Assembly: GCF_058153355.1 (NCBI RefSeq)
Contig: NZ_CM177019.1
Reading direction: 5' to 3' (one strand)
Length of the DNA: 64,000 bases
This document shows positions 7,771-48,913 of the stretch, one piece after another. Each line of letters opens with the position of its first letter. Position 1 is the first letter of the stretch. The notes beneath the pieces were generated by a model that saw nothing but the letters and a program-made list of their open reading frames with translations, made no database searches and had not been told where the DNA came from. The translations under genes were made by a program, and so were the position numbers.

Positions 7771-9357
7771 TTAATGCTCGCGAGTCTGGTGGAACTGAAC
7801 GTCCGGATAACGTTCCTGCGCCAGGCGCAGGTTGACCATGCTGGTAGCGATGTAAGCGAGGTTATCGCCGCCATCAAGCGCCAGTTGGCTTTCGTTCTTA
7901 CGCTTGAACTCTTCGAATTTCTTCGCGTCCGCACATTCTACCCAGCGTGCAGTGGCAACGTTGACTGACTCATACACTGCTTCAACGTTGTATTCGCTCT
8001 TCAGGCGCGCTACCACCACATCAAACTGCAGCACACCAACCGCACCAACGATCAGGTCGTTGTTGGAGATCGGACGGAACACCTGCACCGCGCCCTCTTC
8101 GGAAAGCTGTACCAGCCCTTTGAGCAGCTGTTTTTGCTTCAGCGGATCTTTCAGGCGGATACGACGGAACAGTTCCGGCGCAAAGTTCGGAATACCGGTG
8201 AACTTCATCATCTCCCCCTGGGTAAAGGTGTCGCCGATCTGAATAGTGCCGTGGTTGTGCAGACCAAGGATGTCGCCCGGATACGCTTCCTCAACATGCG
8301 AACGGTCGCCCGCCATAAAGGTCAGCGCGTCGGAGATCACCACATCTTTCGCGGTGCGCACCTGGCGCAGCTTCATGCCTTTTTCATATTTACCGGATAC
8401 CACGCGCATAAACGCCACGCGGTCGCGGTGTTTCGGGTCCATGTTGGCCTGAATTTTAAATACGAAGCCGGTAAATTTATCTTCGCTCGCCTCTACGGTA
8501 CGGGTATCAGTCTGACGCGGCATCGGCGCAGGTGCCCACTCTACCAGGCCATCCAGCATATGATCGACGCCGAAGTTACCCAGCGCAGTACCAAAGAACA
8601 CTGGAGTAATTTCGCCCGCAAGGAACAATTCTTTGTCGAACTCGTTAGACGCGCCTTTCACCAGTTCCAGTTCGTCACGCAGCTGCTGTGCCAGATCTTC
8701 ACCAACCGCAGCATCGAGATCCGGGTTATTCAGCCCTTTAACAATACGGACTTCCTGAATGGTGTGACCTTTACCGCTCTGATAGAGATAGGTTTCGTCT
8801 TTATAAAGGTGGTAAACGCCTTTAAACAGCTTGCCGCAGCCAATCGGCCAGGTGATCGGCGCACAGCCGATTTTCAGCTCGTTCTCAACTTCATCGAGCA
8901 GCTCCATCGGGTCGCGGATATCACGGTCAAGTTTGTTCATAAAGGTGAGGATCGGCGTGTCGCGCAGACGGGTAACTTCCATCAGCTTGCGGGTACGATC
9001 TTCAACACCTTTTGCGGCGTCGATAACCATCAGGCAGCAGTCCACCGCCGTCAGAGTACGATAGGTATCTTCCGAGAAGTCTTCGTGCCCCGGGGTGTCG
9101 AGCAGGTTAACCAGGCAGTCGTGATACGGAAACTGCATCACAGACGTAGTAATGGAGATCCCACGCTGCTTTTCCATCTCCATCCAGTCCGACTTAGCGT
9201 GCTGGTTGGAACCACGGCCTTTTACTGTACCGGCAGTCTGAATGGCCTGTCCGAACAGCAGCACCTTCTCGGTGATGGTCGTTTTACCGGCGTCCGGGTG
9301 AGAAATAATTGCAAAGGTTCTTCTTTTCGCTACCTCTGCGGCCAAAAGGCTTGTCAT
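7771..9357 (-). CDS. prfC: peptide chain release factor 3 (hybrid: first ~16-21 codons supplied by the prophage)
   Basis: GTPase motifs [20 protein letters not shown] and NKLD; start ATG at 9355-9357 reads [15 protein letters not shown], whereas the displaced host version [16 protein letters not shown] is found at 48839..48913. Confidence 0.9.
9296..9309. repeat. prophage attL core (14-bp identity ATTATTTCTCACCC on the prfC coding strand)
   Basis: Identical 14-mer at 48848..48861; flanking prfC-homologous sequence diverges on one side and phage/host sequence on the other. Confidence 0.7.
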
Positions 9358-9374: not shown

Positions 9375-9395
9375 TTATGTACAATCATATGTACA
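9375..9395. repeat. integrase arm-type site cluster (TTATGTACAATCATATGTACA)
   Basis: 20/21 identical to 48664..48684; further (A/T)TGTACA copies nearby on both arms; both lie inside the prophage ends. Confidence 0.55.
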
Positions 9396-9517
9396 AAGAA
9401 AAATTCATGCCGCTGATTGTACATTTTGGAGGTATCAGAGCATAGCAGAACATGATCAGTAGGTGTATTTGTAGCCAAAGAACATTTGTATATGCAGCAA
9501 TCTTTGCTCTATTGACA

Positions 9518-9533
9518 CTGTTTATTCATACAG
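9518..9533. promoter_or_regulatory. LexA (SOS) box CTGT-N8-ACAG overlapping a TTGACA -35 element upstream of the dinI-like gene
   Basis: CTGTTTATTCATACAG immediately after TTGACA (9512..9517); a weaker second copy at 9546..9561. Confidence 0.55.
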
Positions 9534-9577
9534 TTAAAAATAATACTGTATAAAAACGCAGTAGAGAGGGGTTTTTT

Positions 9578-9826
9578 ATGCGTATTGAGATCTGCATAGC
9601 CAAAGAGAAAATGACTAAAATGCCAAACGGTGCTGTGGATGCGTTAAAGGAAGAATTAACTCGGCGCATCAGTAAGCGTTATGACGATGTAGAAGTGATC
9701 GTAAAAGCCACCAGCAATGATGGGCTTTCTGTTACACGCACCGCAGATAAGGATTCTGCAAAAACATTTGTTCAGGAGACTCTGAAAGATACCTGGGAGT
9801 CTGCTGACGAGTGGTTTGTTCACTAA
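9578..9826 (+). CDS. DinI-family damage-inducible protein (prophage-encoded)
   Basis: 82-aa [13 protein letters not shown]...[16 protein letters not shown] resembling DinI (conserved C-terminal TWESADxWFV); SD GAGAGGGG upstream. Confidence 0.8.
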
Positions 9827-9856
9827 TTAACACGTAAAATCTGTAACGGCTGGAAA

Positions 9857-10060
9857 TCATTCAATACTCGCACTATCGAAAGTTCGCCAGCCAACCGCAG
9901 CACGTTCTTGCATACGACGTGTCTGCGGTTTTATATAATCCCAGCCGGTCCAGTTTCCAGACAACCAGCGTGTCACCTGCCGATAATGTCCTGTCAACGC
10001 ATTACGTTGTAGATCGATTTTCTGGTCATTTGTTGATACGCAAACATAGCCAATAAGCAT
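9857..10060 (-). pseudogene. Gin/Pin/Hin-family serine DNA invertase, degraded remnant
   Basis: N-terminus MLIGYVCVSTNDQKIDLQRNAL matches the invertase catalytic N-terminus, then the frame breaks; a second frame encodes GDTLVVWKLDRLG (a Gin motif); only ~200 bp of a ~580 bp gene remains. Confidence 0.8.
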
Positions 10061-10126
10061 GGTAGCTCCCTCTGACAAAAGCAGGAATGATGCCATTTAC
10101 TCGTTATTTCTGCATTTTCATAAACA

Positions 10127-10148
10127 TTGGTTTACAGGAAGCGGTAAA
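10127..10148. repeat. gix-like recombination site (right), TTGGTTTACAGGAAGCGGTAAA
   Basis: Inverted repeat of 13182..13203 (21/22 bp); contains the GGTTTACAGGAA half-site characteristic of Gin/Cin/Pin crossover sites. Confidence 0.75.
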
Positions 10149-11085
10149 TCAGGCTTCTGGCGCATTACAGAAAAACCAGAACGGTGCAGATATTCCAGGA
10201 AAAGATACCTTCACCAAAAATATTGGTGCCTGTCGCGCATATAGCGCATGGGTGGATATTGGTGGCGATAGTCAGGTCTGGACAACTGCGCAATTTATTT
10301 CGTGGCTGGAGAGTCAGGGAGCATTTAACCATCCTTACTGGATGTGCAAAGGCTCATGGGCTTATGCAAATAATAAGGTCATTACAGATACAGGTTGCGG
10401 AAATATTTGTCTTGCAGGTGCTGTGGTGGAAGTTATTGGCACCCGCGGCGCAATGACCATACGCGTTACCACGCCGGGCACGTCCAGCGGCGGCGGAATC
10501 ACTAACGCTCAATTCACTTATATTAATCATGGTGATGCTTACGCTCCTGGCTGGCGACGAGACTACAACACGAAAAACCAGCAGCCTGCATTTGCTTTAG
10601 GGCAAACAGGAAATACCGTCGGAAACGACAAAGCCGTTGGCTGGAACTGGAATAGCGGGGTCTATAACGCAAATATTGGTGGCGCAACAACATTAATCCT
10701 CCACTTCAATATGAATACGGGGAGTTGCCCTGCCGTACAGTTCCGTGTGAATTACAGGAACGGCGGTATTTTTTATCGTTCAGCGCGTGATGGTTATGGA
10801 TTTGAGGCTGGCTGGTCAGAGTTTTACACCACAACACGCAAGCCATCAGCGAGAGATGTTGGCGCATATACGCAGGCAGAATGTAACTCAAGGTTTATTA
10901 CAGGTATTCGCCTTGGTGGTCTGTCATCTGTTCAGACATGGAATGGTCCCGGCTGGTCTGACAGGTCAGGTTATGTTGTTACCGGTTCCGTTAACTCAAA
11001 CAGAGATGAACTAATTGATACAACTCAGGCAAGGCCAGTTCAGTATTGCATTAATGGGACGTGGTATAACGCGGGGAGTATTTAA
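10149..11085 (+). CDS. alternative (currently silent) tail-fibre C-terminal cassette, no own start codon
   Basis: Begins at the gix site with GLQEAVNQ, homologous to GLQETVNR in the expressed fibre; ends ...RPVQYCINGTWYNAGSI like the expressed fibre C-terminus. Confidence 0.7.
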
Positions 11086-11087
11086 CG

Positions 11088-32636: not shown

Positions 32637-33689
32637 TTATTTCCCCACCAGTTCACTTACCTCTTTCACCGTCTGGTTAAACCGATCTGACTCAAACTCA
32701 ACACCTAACGCCCGACGCCCCAGCGCCATTGCTGCTTTTATTGTGGAACCGGATCCCATAAAGAAATCAGCAACCAGATCGCCTGGTCGACTACTGGCAT
32801 TGATTATTTGCCGGAGCATATCCGCAGGCTTCTCACACGGATGTTTACCCGGGTAGAACTGAACGGGTTTATGCGTCCAGACGTCGGTATAAGGCACGGA
32901 AACTGATACGGAGAAATAGCGCCGGAGAGTTTTAAACTCATCCAGCAATTCAGAATATTTGCGATTCAGTGAATCATAAGATGCCACCAGCTGGTGGTGT
33001 GTGTGTTCCAGTTGTTGTTCCTGAAACTTCTCTGCCGCTATACGGGAAAACAGTGCCTGCAACTTTCGGTAGTCAGCCTCGTTCGGCAACTGCCACTGAC
33101 TGGCACCAAACCAGTGGGAAACCATATTTTTCTTACCAGTGGCTTCGGCAATCTGTTTTGCCGTTATCCCCAGTTCGGCACGAGCATCCCTGAAATACGA
33201 AATCAGCGGTGCCATTATGTGCTGTTTGAGTTCCCTTTCTTTTGCCGCATAGCCGTCACTTTTGCCGCGATATGGCCCCTGGTAATGTTCAGCAAACAGA
33301 ACGCGCTCTGTTGCGGGAAAATATGCGCGCAGACTTTCTTTATTACACCCGTTCCATCGTCCGGACGGCTTCGCCCAGATGATATGGTTAAGCACGTTGA
33401 AACGTTCACGCATCATGATCTCGATATCAGATGCGAGGCGATGTCCACAGAACAGGTAAAGGCTTCCGGCAGGTTTCAACACCCGCCAGAACTGGGCCAG
33501 ACAATGGTCCAGCCACTTAAGGTAATCTTCGTCCCCTTTCCACTGATTGTCCCAGCCGTTGGGTTTCACCTTGAAGTACGGCGGATCGGTAACAATCAGG
33601 TCAATGGAATCATCAGGCAGGGACTGAATAAAATACAGGCAATCAGCGTTGATTAAATCAGCACTGTTTATTTTTACAGTATTTTTCAT
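32637..33689 (-). CDS. DNA methyltransferase (N6-adenine or N4-cytosine, beta-class)
   Basis: 350 aa; motif IV TDPPYF near the N-terminus and AdoMet motif FFMGSGST near the C-terminus. Confidence 0.8.
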   Translation of the reverse strand: MKNTVKINSADLINADCLYFIQSLPDDSIDLIVTDPPYFKVKPNGWDNQWKGDEDYLKWLDHCLAQFWRVLKPAGSLYLFCGHRLASDIEIMMRERFNVLNHIIWAKPSGRWNGCNKESLRAYFPATERVLFAEHYQGPYRGKSDGYAAKERELKQHIMAPLISYFRDARAELGITAKQIAEATGKKNMVSHWFGASQWQLPNEADYRKLQALFSRIAAEKFQEQQLEHTHHQLVASYDSLNRKYSELLDEFKTLRRYFSVSVSVPYTDVWTHKPVQFYPGKHPCEKPADMLRQIINASSRPGDLVADFFMGSGSTIKAAMALGRRALGVEFESDRFNQTVKEVSELVGK

Positions 33690-36046: not shown

Positions 36047-36874
36047 TCAATGAACGGTATCGAGCAGCTTTAACAGCTCAGGGAATCGGGATTCGAAGAA
36101 ATGCGGCTGCGTCTCGCGCGGATTTGCGGGACTGGTGATGTTCTTGCCGAACATGCAGCCTTTCGCTGTCAGCGACCAGAATTTTTTGATGTTGTTAATC
36201 GCGGTACGGCTGTATCGTTCGCGTTGTTCGACGATCCCCAGCTTCGCCATCTGGTGATATGCCTGATTAGCCGTCAGGCGGATACCATACTGTTTCAGCA
36301 GTGCACTCAGCGACAGCGTAGGGCGGCTTGAACCATCTGGCGCATCAGCAGGGGCATCAATGGCATAGATCGGCATAAGTTCAGGAAGACCAGCTACCTT
36401 TGATAATTTCTGGTATGCACCAAGTTTCGAGGAGTTTGACAGATTTAGAGTCTTTGCTGCTGATTCAAGCAGAATGACCCCGGATTTGATTTTGTCGGAT
36501 ATGGTTTCTTCTGGTGATGAATTATGAAGCGCATCAAAAGTACGTATCACTTTTAAGCTGAATGCCGGGCTGATCCACATTGCATATGCATAGACCAGCT
36601 CTTTACAGACATACGTCCCACCATTGCGCCCCTGAATGGTGATGACAGGAATACTACGGGAATCTCCCGTAGTTTCTTCTTCCAATAATTCCACAAGAGC
36701 CTTCGTTTCAGGACGACGCATAAACTCGTGAACTTCCAGCGAACGGGAGGAGCGATTCTCACCAGCAGCAAGAAGAGCAGCTTTCTGAAGGTCGTTAAGA
36801 CAGTAGTTAGATTCGAAGTACTGGCGCACAGAAACGCCATCAATTACAAGCAACTGATTCATTGGTTTCTCCAC
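36047..36874 (-). CDS. KilA-N domain protein (putative antirepressor)
   Basis: 275 aa; N-terminal region with ELVYAYAMWISPAFSLKVIRTF resembles KilA-N/Bro-N; preceded by a consensus SOS box. Confidence 0.6.
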   Translation of the reverse strand: MEKPMNQLLVIDGVSVRQYFESNYCLNDLQKAALLAAGENRSSRSLEVHEFMRRPETKALVELLEEETTGDSRSIPVITIQGRNGGTYVCKELVYAYAMWISPAFSLKVIRTFDALHNSSPEETISDKIKSGVILLESAAKTLNLSNSSKLGAYQKLSKVAGLPELMPIYAIDAPADAPDGSSRPTLSLSALLKQYGIRLTANQAYHQMAKLGIVEQRERYSRTAINNIKKFWSLTAKGCMFGKNITSPANPRETQPHFFESRFPELLKLLDTVH

Positions 36875-36959: not shown

Positions 36960-36979
36960 TACTGTTCATAAATACAGTA
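36960..36979. promoter_or_regulatory. LexA (SOS) box TACTGTTCATAAATACAGTA
   Basis: 20-bp palindrome matching TACTGT-N8-ACAGTA at both ends; ~85 bp upstream of the KilA-N gene start, in the RusA/KilA-N intergenic region. Confidence 0.6.
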
Positions 36980-37024: not shown

Positions 37025-37420
37025 TTACCGAGTTGCTAATTTGCAACTCGCTTTTTCGTACTTACTGATAGTGATCTCGACCTTCCCTTCCGGGATAACC
37101 GGTCCCCACTCCACCAGCATTCTTTTCACCTGACTGTCGTCTTCCCACACACCCGCGTGGGTCAGAGCGTCAAACAGCGCCTTGTTATAGTTGTCCAGAT
37201 CGCGGATCCGGTTATCCGGAGGAAACAACACGATCTCCACTGAAGCAGGTGCCGACGTTGGTTTCGGCAGACGACGTAACTGCTCAACTATTGCTGCGCA
37301 CGCCGCGCTCTGGAATTTGCGCCCCGCCGCGCTTATCAGGCTTTTACCAGCAAACGCCCCTTTGTTAGGGTGTCGCCAGTACGTATTCACGCTGGGCGGG
37401 AAAGGCAGGATCAGTTTCAT
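37025..37420 (-). CDS. Holliday junction resolvase RusA-like
   Basis: 131 aa; conserved RusA pattern (PPSVNTYWRH..., DLDNYNKALFDALTHAGVWEDDSQV). Confidence 0.8.
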   Translation of the reverse strand: MKLILPFPPSVNTYWRHPNKGAFAGKSLISAAGRKFQSAACAAIVEQLRRLPKPTSAPASVEIVLFPPDNRIRDLDNYNKALFDALTHAGVWEDDSQVKRMLVEWGPVIPEGKVEITISKYEKASCKLATR

Positions 37421-37743
37421 ACTTTCAGGCCTCTCTCATGTAACCAGTGGGTTGCACGCAGCCTTGCGTTTTCCTCACCGGCAAGCAGTGAGCGGATAAT
37501 CCCGACAGCCTCGCTGTCGTCGTCCTTCACCGCGGTATGAAGCGTTATCCCCCGGGCCACGCCACGCTTTATCGTGATGACGCCTTTTTTCTCCAGTGCG
37601 CGAAGATGCTCCACCGCTGCATTCACTGAACGGTATCCCAGCATGGTTGCCACCTCCTGATTGGTTGGCGGGAAGCCACGTTCTTTCTGGTAAGAAATCA
37701 GCATATCCAGCACCTGCTGCTGGCATTGAGTTAATGTCGTCAT
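37417..37743 (-). CDS. LexA N-terminal DNA-binding-domain homologue (no peptidase domain)
   Basis: 108 aa; LTQCQQQVLDMLISYQKERGFPPTNQEVATMLGYRSVNAAVEHLRALEKKGVITIKRGVARGITL aligns with the E. coli LexA N-domain at roughly half identity; there is no S24 peptidase region. Confidence 0.7.
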   Translation of the reverse strand: MTTLTQCQQQVLDMLISYQKERGFPPTNQEVATMLGYRSVNAAVEHLRALEKKGVITIKRGVARGITLHTAVKDDDSEAVGIIRSLLAGEENARLRATHWLHERGLKV

Positions 37744-40784: not shown

Positions 40785-41471
40785 GTGAAAACATTGGCAG
40801 AAAGACTAAAAAGCGAAAGAGAAAAAGCAGGAATGAGTCAGGCGCAACTAGCTGAAAAAATTGGACTTTCACAACAATCCGTAGCGAAAATCGAGAATGG
40901 AGAAACTCAACAGCCTCGGAAAATTAAAGAGATTGCTAAAGTGTTAGGGGTTTCTCAAAAGTGGTTGCAATTGGGCATTGAGGATAACGCGTCTTTCCCA
41001 AACCTTGTTGTAAAGGAGGCTGAAAGTACAACATTAGATCCTGACATTTTTGCAAACATTCCTGTCCTAGATGTCGAATTATCAGCGGGTAATGGATGTT
41101 TGGCTGAAATAGTTGAATCAACTGTAGACTGGTTCCCGCTAAGAAGGATTGATTTAAGGAAAGCTGGTGTATGTGTCTCCAATGCAAAGATCGTAAAAAT
41201 TTGGGGTAATAGTTTACTACCTGTACTTAACAATGGAGATTTTGTTGCTGTTGATGTTTCCCAAACAGTTCCTATTCGTGATGGGGATCTTTATGCTATA
41301 CGTGATGGCGTATTACTTAGAGTTAAAATATTGATCAATTTACCTGACGGTGGTCTGATTCTAAGAAGTTTCAATAAAGATGAGTATCCAGATGAAATAC
41401 TCACCTTCGAAGATAGGCGTTCCAGAATTCACGTTATAGGTAGAGTATTCTGGTCATCGCGCACTTGGTAA
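40785..41471 (+). CDS. CI-like repressor (HTH_XRE N-domain + S24 LexA-type peptidase C-domain)
   Basis: 228 aa; GMSQAQLAEKIGLSQQSVAKIENG HTH; C-terminal domain with Ser (GNSLLP) and Lys (RVKIL) typical of autocleaving repressors; GTG start with SD GAGGGGG. Confidence 0.85.
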   Translation: MKTLAERLKSEREKAGMSQAQLAEKIGLSQQSVAKIENGETQQPRKIKEIAKVLGVSQKWLQLGIEDNASFPNLVVKEAESTTLDPDIFANIPVLDVELSAGNGCLAEIVESTVDWFPLRRIDLRKAGVCVSNAKIVKIWGNSLLPVLNNGDFVAVDVSQTVPIRDGDLYAIRDGVLLRVKILINLPDGGLILRSFNKDEYPDEILTFEDRRSRIHVIGRVFWSSRTW

Positions 41472-47394: not shown

Positions 47395-48618
47395 TCAGTT
47401 TGAATCAGAGATAGTACAATTAACAATCGATTCAACCCTCTTCCACCATGCCAGGTAAGCTTTACGCTGTTCTTCTAGATAATCGCTCTTATCATAAACT
47501 TGCCATACCCCTGGCAGCTTATGACCAAGCATAATTTCTGCGATATGAGGCGCAGTAAGATCAGAAAAATTTGTTCGAGCTGTACGTCTCAAGTCATGAA
47601 GAGACCAATGAGGGAATTGATATCCTAAACACCGCCATGCGTACTGCATTAAATTGTAAGGCAGCGACTGCAATGATGTCCGACCAACGGGTTCCCTGCT
47701 TCCTTCCTTAGTAAAAAGCATATCGGAACCATTGTTCATAGAGATAGCGTACTTTATAAGCTCTTCAACCGGTTCAATAATGGGCCGCTTTAGCGGTTCG
47801 CCTGTTATCTCCCCTGTCTTATGTCGTTCTGGTGGTACAGTCCATACTTTATTAATGAAATCAAAATCGTCCACCCGGGCGGTAATTAGCTCTGAACTAC
47901 GGCAACCAAAATGCAGCAATAGTTTAATGAAGGCCCGGTATTTAGGAACCATTCGAGAACCATCGATCGCAGCATAAAGGATTTTAATTTCATCATGTGT
48001 CAGAAACCGTTTCTTCTGACCTTTACGGATATCCATATCTTTACCCGTGATATCCGACAGCGGGCGAGTTTCAATGAGCTTTCTCTTATACGCCCAGACA
48101 TGGGCCTGCTTTGCGTTAATTAGCAATCGGTCTGCTATTGCTGGAGTCTTAGTGCTAAGAGGCTCCAGGACTTCTAACCAATCATGCAATGTAGCTGCAT
48201 CGTGAGGGATATTCCCGATTTTAGAGAACAGGTGCAGCTCAAACGAGCGAAGTATCTGTTCAGAACCTTTTTTATTTTTTACACAATATGCTTCATACCA
48301 AGCACGGATCACAGACTCTACCGTCATGGCTTCAGTAGCTTTTCGTTTTTCAGCCTGCTTGACCAATCGTGGATTACGGTTTGACTCGAGTTCACCACGA
48401 AGACGGATAACTTCTTCTCTGGCCTCTTTTAATCCAGTTGCCGGGTAAGTTCCGATATCAAGACGCTCACCTTTCCCTGCCCATTGATAACGATATTGGA
48501 ACACTACGCGACCTTTCGGTGATACTCTGACAGACAGACCATCACGATCGGATTTAACCAAAACCTTATCACGTTCCTTTCCAACGACTGAACGCAACCA
48601 CGCATCAGACAGCGCCAT
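47395..48618 (-). CDS. tyrosine integrase (P4-type)
   Basis: 407 aa; C-terminal catalytic region with HDLRRTARTNF and a downstream Tyr; adjacent to attR and the arm-type sites. Confidence 0.9.
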   Translation of the reverse strand: MALSDAWLRSVVGKERDKVLVKSDRDGLSVRVSPKGRVVFQYRYQWAGKGERLDIGTYPATGLKEAREEVIRLRGELESNRNPRLVKQAEKRKATEAMTVESVIRAWYEAYCVKNKKGSEQILRSFELHLFSKIGNIPHDAATLHDWLEVLEPLSTKTPAIADRLLINAKQAHVWAYKRKLIETRPLSDITGKDMDIRKGQKKRFLTHDEIKILYAAIDGSRMVPKYRAFIKLLLHFGCRSSELITARVDDFDFINKVWTVPPERHKTGEITGEPLKRPIIEPVEELIKYAISMNNGSDMLFTKEGSREPVGRTSLQSLPYNLMQYAWRCLGYQFPHWSLHDLRRTARTNFSDLTAPHIAEIMLGHKLPGVWQVYDKSDYLEEQRKAYLAWWKRVESIVNCTISDSN

Positions 48619-48663
48619 TACTCACCTTGTACAAATCGCAAAACACCTCTGCTGTTTTGTACA

Positions 48664-48684
48664 TTATGTACAAGCATATGTACA
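48664..48684. repeat. integrase arm-type site cluster (TTATGTACAAGCATATGTACA)
   Basis: Pairs with 9375..9395; additional TTGTACA copies at ~48626 and ~48655. Confidence 0.55.
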
Positions 48685-48838
48685 GATTTTTGATGAAAGC
48701 AAGCTGATCGATTTAAAGTTACATGAAAGAGTTTTCAATTAAAGAAGCTACATAAGCAAATGTATTTAAATGAGTTATATAGCTCAACTTCAATTAACTG
48801 AAAGGATTTTGAAAGAGTAAAAGAGCTTTAATTTGGAC

Positions 48839-48913
48839 TTAATTATTGGGGTGAGAAATAATGGCAAAAGTGCGGCGCTTCGCCACCTCTTGCAAATAAG
48901 GAGACAACGTCAT
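48839..48913 (-). pseudogene. prfC: orphaned original 5' end of prfC (24 codons) displaced by prophage integration
   Basis: Minus strand reads ATG ACG TTG TCT CCT TAT TTG CAA GAG GTG GCG AAG CGC CGC ACT TTT GCC ATT ATT TCT CAC CCC AAT AAT TAA = [24 protein letters not shown]. Confidence 0.85.
48848..48861. repeat. prophage attR core (ATTATTTCTCACCC)
   Basis: Identical to 9296..9309. Confidence 0.7.

Follow-up and report, generated by a model that had tools for sequence, protein, structure and literature searches.

The left end of a prophage integrated in the Escherichia coli prfC gene probably carries a self-contained, SOS-inducible moron, in which the gene for an 82-aa homologue of DinI is preceded by its own promoter with two LexA operators and by a ribosome-binding site. 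The module lies within a 64,000-nt stretch of E. coli chromosome, referred to here as the window, and its features are collected in Table 1. A dinI-like prophage gene had been proposed at this position in the original prediction, and this was confirmed: the open reading frame is intact, its product falls into the DinI family, and att repeats, an integrase gene and a CI repressor gene are all present around it.

The gene prfC is encoded on the − strand, with a RefSeq-type start codon (ATG, 9357–9355). One copy of a 14-bp att repeat with an imperfect extension lies inside prfC, and at the far end of the prophage, next to yjjG, the native 5′ codons of prfC are still present. Together, the repeat and these codons place a prophage of ∼39.5 kb, lambdoid/SfV-like, in the 5′ end of prfC. 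In addition to the integrase and CI, it encodes CII-like and O-like proteins, RusA, Q, terminase, portal, an HK97-type capsid and further head and tail proteins, the tail being of the contractile Mu/SfV type. Since CI has a Peptidase_S24 domain, RecA filaments are expected to be relevant to the induction of this prophage itself. Going inward from attL, the dinI-like gene comes first, 270 bp within the left prophage end. It is separated from the prfC start by 220 bp of intergenic DNA, and a convergent remnant of a pin-type invertase gene begins 30 nt past its stop codon.

Table 1. Coordinates of the dinI-like module and of related prophage features in the window
Feature	Position	Strand	Remarks
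attL core, ATTATTTCTCACCC on − strand	9296–9309	.	Inside prfC; partner copy 48849–48862; prophage start
−35 of P1, TTGACA	9512–9517	+	Also left edge of conserved module; TTGACA-18-AAAAAT, 10/12 match
Distal LexA operator (box 1), CTGTTTATTCATACAG	9518–9533	.	23.3 bits; 20-mer 9516–9535
−10 of P1, AAAAAT	9536–9541	+	Predicted; alternative TAAAAA 9535–9540 with 17-nt spacer
Proximal LexA operator (box 2), CTGTATAAAAACGCAG	9546–9561	.	17.9–18.0 bits; 20-mer TACTGTATAAAAACGCAGTA 9544–9563
Shine–Dalgarno region, GAGAGGGG	9564–9571	+	Read from sequence; 6 nt before ATG; AGAGGG conserved in relatives
dinI-like coding sequence	9578–9826	+	82 aa + stop; intact ORF, DinI family
Probable intrinsic terminator of dinI-like transcript	9893–9938	+	14-bp stem 9893–9930, then U-rich tail
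LexA-like protein	37417–37743	−	108 aa, LexA DNA-binding domain only; Pfam LexA_DNA_bind 1.7e-18
CI	40785–41471		HTH and Peptidase_S24 domains, A-G/Ser/Lys motifs
Integrase	47395–48618		

The 82-aa protein matched the Pfam DinI family (PF06183) over the entire profile (positions 1–63 of 63; 70.8 bits against a cut-off of 24.2, E = 1.2e-19), as well as PHROG 189, 'RecA filament binding protein DinI', at 4e-31. It could be aligned with K-12 DinI over its full length (46% identity), and a PDB search returned the DinI structures 1GHH and 7YWA as its sole real structural relatives. RefSeq names the product 'DinI-like family protein'. Its score of 72.5 bits against the NCBIfam equivalog model NF007893 is under the cut-off of 111, which indicates a paralogue rather than an orthologue of chromosomal DinI, with properties that may differ from those of the latter. 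Of 5426 complete E. coli genomes, 5425 contain chromosomal dinI. Two dinI copies are therefore very probable in the lysogen, the chromosomal one lying outside the window, in line with the second DinI paralogue that had been predicted for it.

Residues E74, A76, D77, W79 and F80, which belong to the C-terminal W-E-S/T-A-D-D/E-W-F helix typical of the family, are unchanged in 12 diverse homologues, and the protein consists of a single domain of ∼80 aa; the alignment further revealed two 2-residue insertions relative to the K-12 and Gifsy types. RecA F203 enters a DinI pocket made up of L13, L21, W71, W77 and F78, and in the cryo-EM complex DinI residues E24, E69 and D76 oppose a basic RecA patch (Gao et al. 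2023, PMC9926225); LexA, UmuD and lambda CI occupy the same RecA groove as DinI (PMC9926225). In our alignments, these contacts map to M15, L23, W73, W79, F80, E26, D71 and E78 of the 82-aa protein. Five of the eight positions are identical and three conservative, and this conservation in kind of all eight contacts makes RecA-filament binding the activity to be expected of the protein.

The 33 DNA alleles of the gene that we compared encode only six protein variants (mean pS 0.16, mean pN 0.005). The pN/pS ratio of 0.034 indicates strong purifying selection on the protein sequence, although retrieval of the loci by peptide similarity biases this estimate. Copies at 85–89% identity were also present in prophage remnants by ssrA, tRNA-Pro and yecD, all of them pseudogenes with frameshifts or stop codons. 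The host thus does not retain the gene after the phage has decayed, and selection appears to be tied to the living phage and not to the host.

Upstream of the gene, we predicted the promoter P1 at the place where the GenBank record of phage mEp460 carries an annotated promoter of 29 nt. Two candidate LexA operators, 28 bp apart, lie 42 and 14 nt upstream of the ATG. Box 1 occupies the P1 spacer, whereas box 2 begins 5 nt past the −10, covers the predicted P1 transcription start (near 9548) and contains a TATAAA. The sequence can also be read as an alternative promoter, with TTCATA at 9525–9530, an 18-nt spacer and TATAAA at 9549–9554 in box 2, which mirrors the layout of K-12 dinI, where the TATAAA of a TTGTCA-17-TATAAA promoter is inside the box; transcription would then start near 9561. 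Whichever promoter is assumed, its core elements are overlapped by both boxes. The centre spacing of 28 bp does not correspond to an integral number of helical turns, so that cooperativity between the two operators is uncertain.

The SOS box of the original prediction corresponds to box 1 and was recovered at 23.3 bits by a LexA matrix scan, but the account given of it holds only in part. It had been described as overlapping the −35, which is true only of its 20-mer form and only for the last two −35 bases, whereas the 16-mer merely abuts this element; and it had been taken as the gene's single box, whereas the second, proximal one had been missed. For the scan, 28 E. coli LexA sites served to construct a log-odds matrix, with the K-12 dinI site verified in the genome. 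Across the 64 kb, four sites reached at least 17.9 bits, all of them within the prophage and two of them directly upstream of the dinI-like gene, and the next best site scored 11.4. By comparison, 40 simulated 64-kb sequences (dinucleotide-Markov) contained no site of that strength. The positive controls scored 22.6 (K-12 dinI) and 23.2 (Gifsy-1 dinI), and the training sites span 12.4 to 26.7 bits. The simple pattern CTGT-N8-ACAG occurred three times in the 64 kb, compared to 0.70 expected occurrences. Both operators match proven LexA sites in strength.

Globally, DNA corresponding to positions 9440–9830 was matched in 1833 of the 5426 complete E. coli genomes, in up to seven places per genome, and in 104 phage records, including cdtI, 2H10, mEp460 and many Stx1a-, Stx2a- and Stx2c-converting phages. 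The protein is 100% identical to cdtI gp30 and to its counterpart in phage 2H10. In a MAFFT alignment of 28 distinct upstream sequences from IMG/VR loci, homology started exactly at the TTGACA, the sequences preceding it being of at least five unrelated types, and at the other end it stopped a few bases past the stop codon. The neighbours of the module also vary, being prfC, ssrA, tRNA-Pro or yecD in E. coli genomes and the int gene in free phages. Given these sharp edges and differing contexts, the module behaves as a compact mobile unit of ∼320 bp and, judging from its predicted promoter, is an autonomous monocistronic moron. Its presence at other att sites, without prfC, also makes it unlikely that the boxes serve the divergent prfC; the distance from box 1 to the prfC ATG is 161 bp, and promoter matches on the − strand were all weak.

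Within the module, conservation was concentrated in the operators. Among 27 distinct relatives, only 1 of the 16 columns of the CTGT/ACAG tetrads was variable, compared to 7/16 in the operator spacers, 7/12 between the two boxes, 11/16 from box 2 to the ATG and 31/31 upstream of the −35. The sole tetrad change affects box 1 (1/8 columns) and converts CTGT to CTGG, which is also found in proven sites. Two loci had a quite different box-2 spacer, in which CTGT-N8-ACAG was nevertheless retained. By this comparison, the operators are conserved among homologues beyond neutral expectation.

To place the two boxes in a wider context, we fetched ten phage DinI homologues with 37–79% identity from Escherichia, Klebsiella, Yersinia, Aeromonas and Salmonella phages. 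For nine of them, a LexA box of 15–26 bits ended 13–19 nt before the ATG, and the one gene without a box is the second gene in an operon. The K-12 dinI box lies 19 nt from the ATG, as do the Gifsy dinI boxes (PMC8072944). The distal box was only seen in the E. coli att-proximal lineage, and Klebsiella phage P18-100, with a protein of 68% identity, has the proximal box alone. Since nine of the ten phage genes, K-12 dinI and the Gifsy genes all carry their box proximally, the comparison indicates that the proximal box is the ancestral operator. In the relatives, box 2 reads CTGTATACAAACACAG (22.3 bits). In the window, a derived A-to-G change turns ACAG into GCAG, costs ∼4 bits and affects a column that is invariant in the 27 relatives; this variant is common only to the window and strain JNU. 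The proximal operator in the window is thus probably somewhat weakened, and with ∼4 bits lost its repression may be leakier than in the relatives.

This mutated proximal box could be taken as a sign that the SOS-box-like sequences are not functional operators at all, being chance AT-rich palindromes or relics upstream of a gene that is constitutive or silent. Partial boxes in some of the decayed copies do indicate that boxes can outlast selection for some time. Nevertheless, we regard this explanation as highly improbable: the matrix scores are within the range of proven sites, sites of this strength were absent from all 40 simulated windows, and the tetrads are conserved while spacers and flanks vary. 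Moreover, the distance between box and ATG is kept among DinI homologues with 37–79% identity while the flanks are unrelated, and the homologous Gifsy boxes were experimentally required for induction by DNA damage (PMC3121763). Functional LexA operators remain our preferred reading of both boxes.

Downstream of the gene, a hairpin that probably acts as an intrinsic terminator was found by folding (−20 kcal/mol, z = −3.4; none of 200 shuffled sequences folded as well). A consensus terminator scan gave no match there, owing to the 9-nt loop of the hairpin. It starts 67 nt downstream of the gene, outside the conserved module, and is therefore specific to this context. The resulting 3′ region of ∼110 nt, which closes with this stable hairpin, raises the question of whether the functional product of the locus is an RNA, particularly as a DinR-like 3′ sRNA exists for Klebsiella dinI (PMC10907235). 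This appears exceedingly improbable in view of the strong purifying selection on the protein sequence and the location of the 3′ region outside the conserved module. In addition, the Rfam search detected nothing above chance (only a sub-threshold CssrB match on the opposite strand, 22.9 versus 76 bits), and predicted pairing with the ftsZ start region reached −21.2 kcal/mol compared to −21.1 ± 3.3 kcal/mol for shuffled sequences. With an unconserved 3′ region, a sub-threshold Rfam match and pairing at shuffle level, a DinR-like 3′ sRNA acting on ftsZ was rejected, and we take the 82-aa protein to be the product of the locus.

Phage-borne DinI domains are also known from antirepressor systems, and the dinI-like gene could in principle belong to one of these, either a Tum as in phage 186 or an operon as in Gifsy, in which case its LexA boxes would directly control prophage induction. 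The PHROG 189 profile, with 151 positions, does extend ∼70 positions beyond the part matched by the 82-aa protein, which covers only positions 71–149. Furthermore, in Gifsy-1, mEp237, SEN34, pAEv1818 and one Klebsiella phage a small ORF and then ninB lie downstream of the DinI gene, and the small ORF after Gifsy dinI is an antirepressor (Lemire et al. 2011, PMC3121763). Two arrangements of phage DinI genes can be distinguished, an att-proximal monocistronic gene for 82 aa and a nin-region operon with a protein of ∼77 aa, and the gene in the window is located at the att end of its prophage and not in a nin region. Its product consists of the DinI domain only, whereas the antirepressor activity of PSP3 maps to the non-DinI half (PMC3121763). 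The convergent invertase remnant and the terminator-like hairpin leave no room for a co-transcribed partner, and homology between phages stops just past the stop codon. The ORF list of the window contained no partner ORF downstream of the gene; the only + strand ORFs there encode 34 and 45 aa, have TTG/GTG starts and lie inside the invertase remnant. The CI of this prophage, finally, is of the self-cleaving S24 type by its motifs. Both the Gifsy operon and the Tum reading were therefore rejected on the basis of the missing partner ORF, the lone DinI domain and the cleavable type of CI, and we consider an antirepressor role very improbable for what we read as a monocistronic dinI-like gene.

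A different question is which protein reads the operators. The prophage itself encodes a 108-aa LexA-like protein that has the LexA DNA-binding domain and lacks the S24 domain. It shares 43% identity with LexA residues 1–86, and its recognition-helix segment (RSVNAAVEHLRAL) resembles that of LexA (RSPNAAEEHLKAL). This protein might also, or even mainly, bind the operators, as an uncleavable mimic able to silence SOS-box promoters again in lytic growth, once host LexA has been destroyed. The restriction of all four strong LexA boxes of the window to the prophage would fit such a role, as would the joint presence of the LexA-like gene and the DinI module in cdtI, mEp460, 2H10, Stx2c phages, PhiR47_1, PhiR55_1, PhiR63_1 and SKA5. 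However, this co-occurrence may just mirror related phage backbones, the LexA DNA-binding domain alone binds weakly, and the mimic is pure inference, for which our literature search returned no publication. We consider it unlikely.

A LexA box is also located upstream of the KilA-N gene of the prophage, and one can imagine an SOS sub-circuit of the phage's own, in which host LexA and subsequently the 108-aa protein repress the dinI-like gene and the LexA-boxed KilA-N gene, while the extra DinI tunes repressor cleavage. Quite unlikely as it is, such a circuit would allow the phage to re-close SOS-box promoters in lytic growth, possibly including those of host SOS genes, and the extra DinI would set the rate at which RecA filaments promote cleavage of its own CI and of the repressors of co-resident prophages.

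We favor host LexA as the regulator and propose the following model for the SOS-inducible module. In an undamaged lysogen, host LexA dimers would sit on both operators and keep the gene off, one dimer in the −35/−10 spacer and the other over the predicted transcription start and the alternative −10. Upon DNA damage, RecA filaments would stimulate the self-cleavage of LexA and the promoter would open, so that the dinI-like protein could build up alongside chromosomal DinI. F203 in the L2 loop of RecA would then enter the pocket formed by M15, L23, W73, W79 and F80, with the acidic patch of E26, D71 and E78 facing K232, R243 and K245 of RecA. As this groove is shared by LexA, UmuD and lambda-type CI, extra DinI would provide more of a filament stabilizer as well as a competitor, and competition with the S24-type CI of the same prophage would be expected. 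In this way, it could shift the timing or the threshold of UmuD and CI cleavage, including that of its own CI.

The steps of this model differ in certainty. We infer LexA occupancy and damage induction from chromosomal dinI and Gifsy dinI, and RecA binding from the protein sequence. For the Gifsy dinI homologues, LexA control as well as induction by mitomycin C and nalidixic acid have been demonstrated (PMC3121763; PMC8072944), and the LexA box of Klebsiella dinI overlaps the transcription start, with LexA occupancy confirmed by ChIP (PMC10907235). E. coli dinI is likewise a LexA-bound, damage-inducible gene. An effect on prophage induction is speculative and the least certain step. [quoted passage not shown] A paper on Stx phages guessed that phage DinI limits Stx phage induction (PMC8456039); other than this, our literature search for the E. 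coli lineage found annotation-level mentions and no experiments.

As matters stand, this is a routine, well-annotated cargo gene. LexA-regulated prophage homologues of dinI were already known from Gifsy-1, -2 and -3, and phage cdtI has an annotated protein of identical sequence. What our sequence comparison adds is the two-operator layout, the ancestral status of the proximal box and the sharp boundaries of the module. By analogy with the known homologues, the module would raise the dose of a RecA-filament modulator exactly while SOS is on, and about a third of complete E. coli genomes have at least one copy, including copies in Stx- and Cdt-converting phages. If cleavage of UmuD, LexA or CI were measurably shifted, this would affect the induction thresholds of toxin phages, SOS mutagenesis and quinolone tolerance. 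In one comparative study, a DinI-like gene in a viral region was listed among horizontally acquired genes discussed as possibly mitigating the effect of quinolones (bioRxiv 10.1101/2023.06.20.545734).

Comparison with known systems places the module among several LexA-controlled DinI relatives. K-12 DinI (b1061; PDB 1GHH, 7YWA) belongs to the same fold family and has the same length, and its LexA box is in an equivalent position, overlapping the core promoter. In contrast to the gene in the window, K-12 dinI has only one full box, with a CTGT half-site over the −35 where the window gene has a second full operator, and it is a core gene (5425/5426 genomes), whereas the module was found in 1833/5426. 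Among plasmid-encoded proteins, ImpC of the TP110 impCAB operon and PsiB of conjugative plasmids are small modulators of RecA or SOS. ImpC is likewise DinI-like and LexA-controlled, and is co-transcribed with umuDC-like genes, whereas PsiB is from another fold family.

Of the phage systems, Tum of coliphage 186 (with a split tum in Fels-2 and PSP3) shares the phage-borne location and a DinI-like segment with the gene described here, as well as the LexA repression predicted for the latter. In Tum, an antirepressor is fused to a DinI-like half (Lemire et al. 2011, PMC3121763); the protein comprises 146 aa, with the antirepressor activity assigned to the non-DinI half (PMC3121763), whereas the window protein is a DinI domain alone, in a prophage with a CI of the cleavable type. 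The dinI homologues of Gifsy-1, -2 and -3 (STM2621 and others) are also prophage-borne, and their LexA box lies 19 nt from the ATG, as compared to 14 nt here. Gifsy DinI is only 42% identical to the window protein and does not have its two 2-residue insertions. In addition, Gifsy dinI is located in the nin region at the head of a dinI–antirepressor–irsA operon and has one operator, whereas the window gene is monocistronic and att-proximal and has two. The Gifsy repressors are not cleaved, in contrast to what the S24 domain suggests for CI of the prophage in the window.

The closest counterparts are cdtI gp30, mEp460_021, the 'DinI' proteins of Stx1a, Stx2a and Stx2c phages and BP-4795 ORF85, which are encoded by the same module with the same promoter and both boxes. 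Our literature search found no published operator analysis for cdtI, mEp460 or the Stx phages, and the mEp460 record has the promoter only. The mEp460 and Stx-phage proteins are 94–99% identical to the window protein, and in cdtI, mEp460 and the Stx phages the module is always located between att/int and tail-fibre or cargo genes. Phage cdtI also uses the prfC att site, with cdtABC as the neighbouring cargo where the window has the invertase remnant. Finally, the proximal box of the window carries the GCAG allele, as opposed to ACAG in the modules of cdtI, mEp460 and the Stx phages.

In the lysogen, prfC is a hybrid gene with a phage-derived 5′ end: the att core falls at codon ∼17, and phage DNA provides codons 1–16, including the start codon, as well as everything upstream. 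Sequence comparison revealed that the N-terminal residues of the hybrid PrfC differ from the native ones. The native 5′ end of prfC and its promoter are now 39.5 kb away, adjoining yjjG. Upstream of the new start codon, no strong sigma-70 promoter was detected on the minus strand, only weak matches (TTTTCT-17-CATAAT). TGTACA repeats (e.g. TTGTACATATGATTGTACATAAT) flank the attachment site on either side and are probably arm-type binding sites of the prfC-specific integrase.

The prophage also contains an invertible host-range segment, in which two tail-fibre/tail-fibre-assembly cassettes in opposite orientations are adjoined by the N-terminal remnant of a Pin-type invertase. RefSeq names the equivalent of this remnant in strain JNU 'pinE, incomplete', and the segment is probably locked. 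Downstream of the dinI-like gene lies a stable hairpin followed by a U tail, which the consensus terminator scan overlooked because the loop is 9 nt long. On the strand opposite the hairpin, Rfam returned a sub-threshold match to the Shigella sRNA CssrB (22.9 vs 76 bits).

Frameshifted or stop-carrying copies of the dinI-like module are present in E. coli strains 03_3503, Ec-050-T20-ESBL and p11A (L085, L086 and L087), where they immediately adjoin ssrA, tRNA-Pro and yecD; these broken copies are the final remnant of decayed prophages. One of them adjoins T3SS effector genes (espK), and an intact copy in an O157 strain lies close to espM2.

Features of the prophage and its attachment site
Feature	Position	Strand	Details
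prfC 5′ ends (hybrid and native)	9296–9357, 48849–48910		
Weak sigma-70 match	9402–9374	−	
TGTACA repeats	9379–9422, 48650–48700		
Hairpin with U tail	9893–9938		−20 kcal/mol, z = −3.4
CssrB match	9896–9956		opposite hairpin
Invertase remnant	within 9857–13492		
Tail-fibre cassette 1	10087–11621	+	
Tail-fibre cassette 2	11650–13492	−	
DNA methyltransferase gene	32637–33689	−	
LexA-box-like sequence	33662–33681		CACTGTTTATTTTTACAGTA, 22.6 bits
KilA-N domain gene	36047–36874		
Predicted LexA box (strong)	36960–36979		TACTGTTCATAAATACAGTA, 23.2 bits
rusA	37025–37420		
LexA-like protein, 108 aa	37417–37743	−	Pfam LexA DNA-binding domain, 1.7e-18

The sole domain of the 108-aa LexA-like phage protein is the DNA-binding domain, with 43% identity to LexA residues 1–86 and a recognition-helix segment reading RSVNAAVEHLRAL versus RSPNAAEEHLKAL in LexA. 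An S24 domain is absent, and an 'LLAGE' motif lines up with the LexA cleavage site; the protein could be an uncleavable LexA mimic. We found no functional study of it in the literature. The gene also occurs in SfV (orf42), SfII, SfIV, cdtI (orf48), mEp460 (mEp460_046) and Stx2c phages.

Two further LexA-box matches were scored in the prophage using a matrix built from 28 E. coli sites. The one within codons 3–9 of the methyltransferase gene, identical in SfV orf48, may be an operator near the gene's 5′ end or may simply reflect the coding sequence by chance. The other, a strong box, lies in the ∼150-nt spacer between rusA and the KilA-N domain gene. The prophage may have gained SOS control over the KilA-N gene (antirepressor-like?), since in mEp460, cdtI and SfV, unlike here, the corresponding gap is only 19 nt and contains no LexA box.
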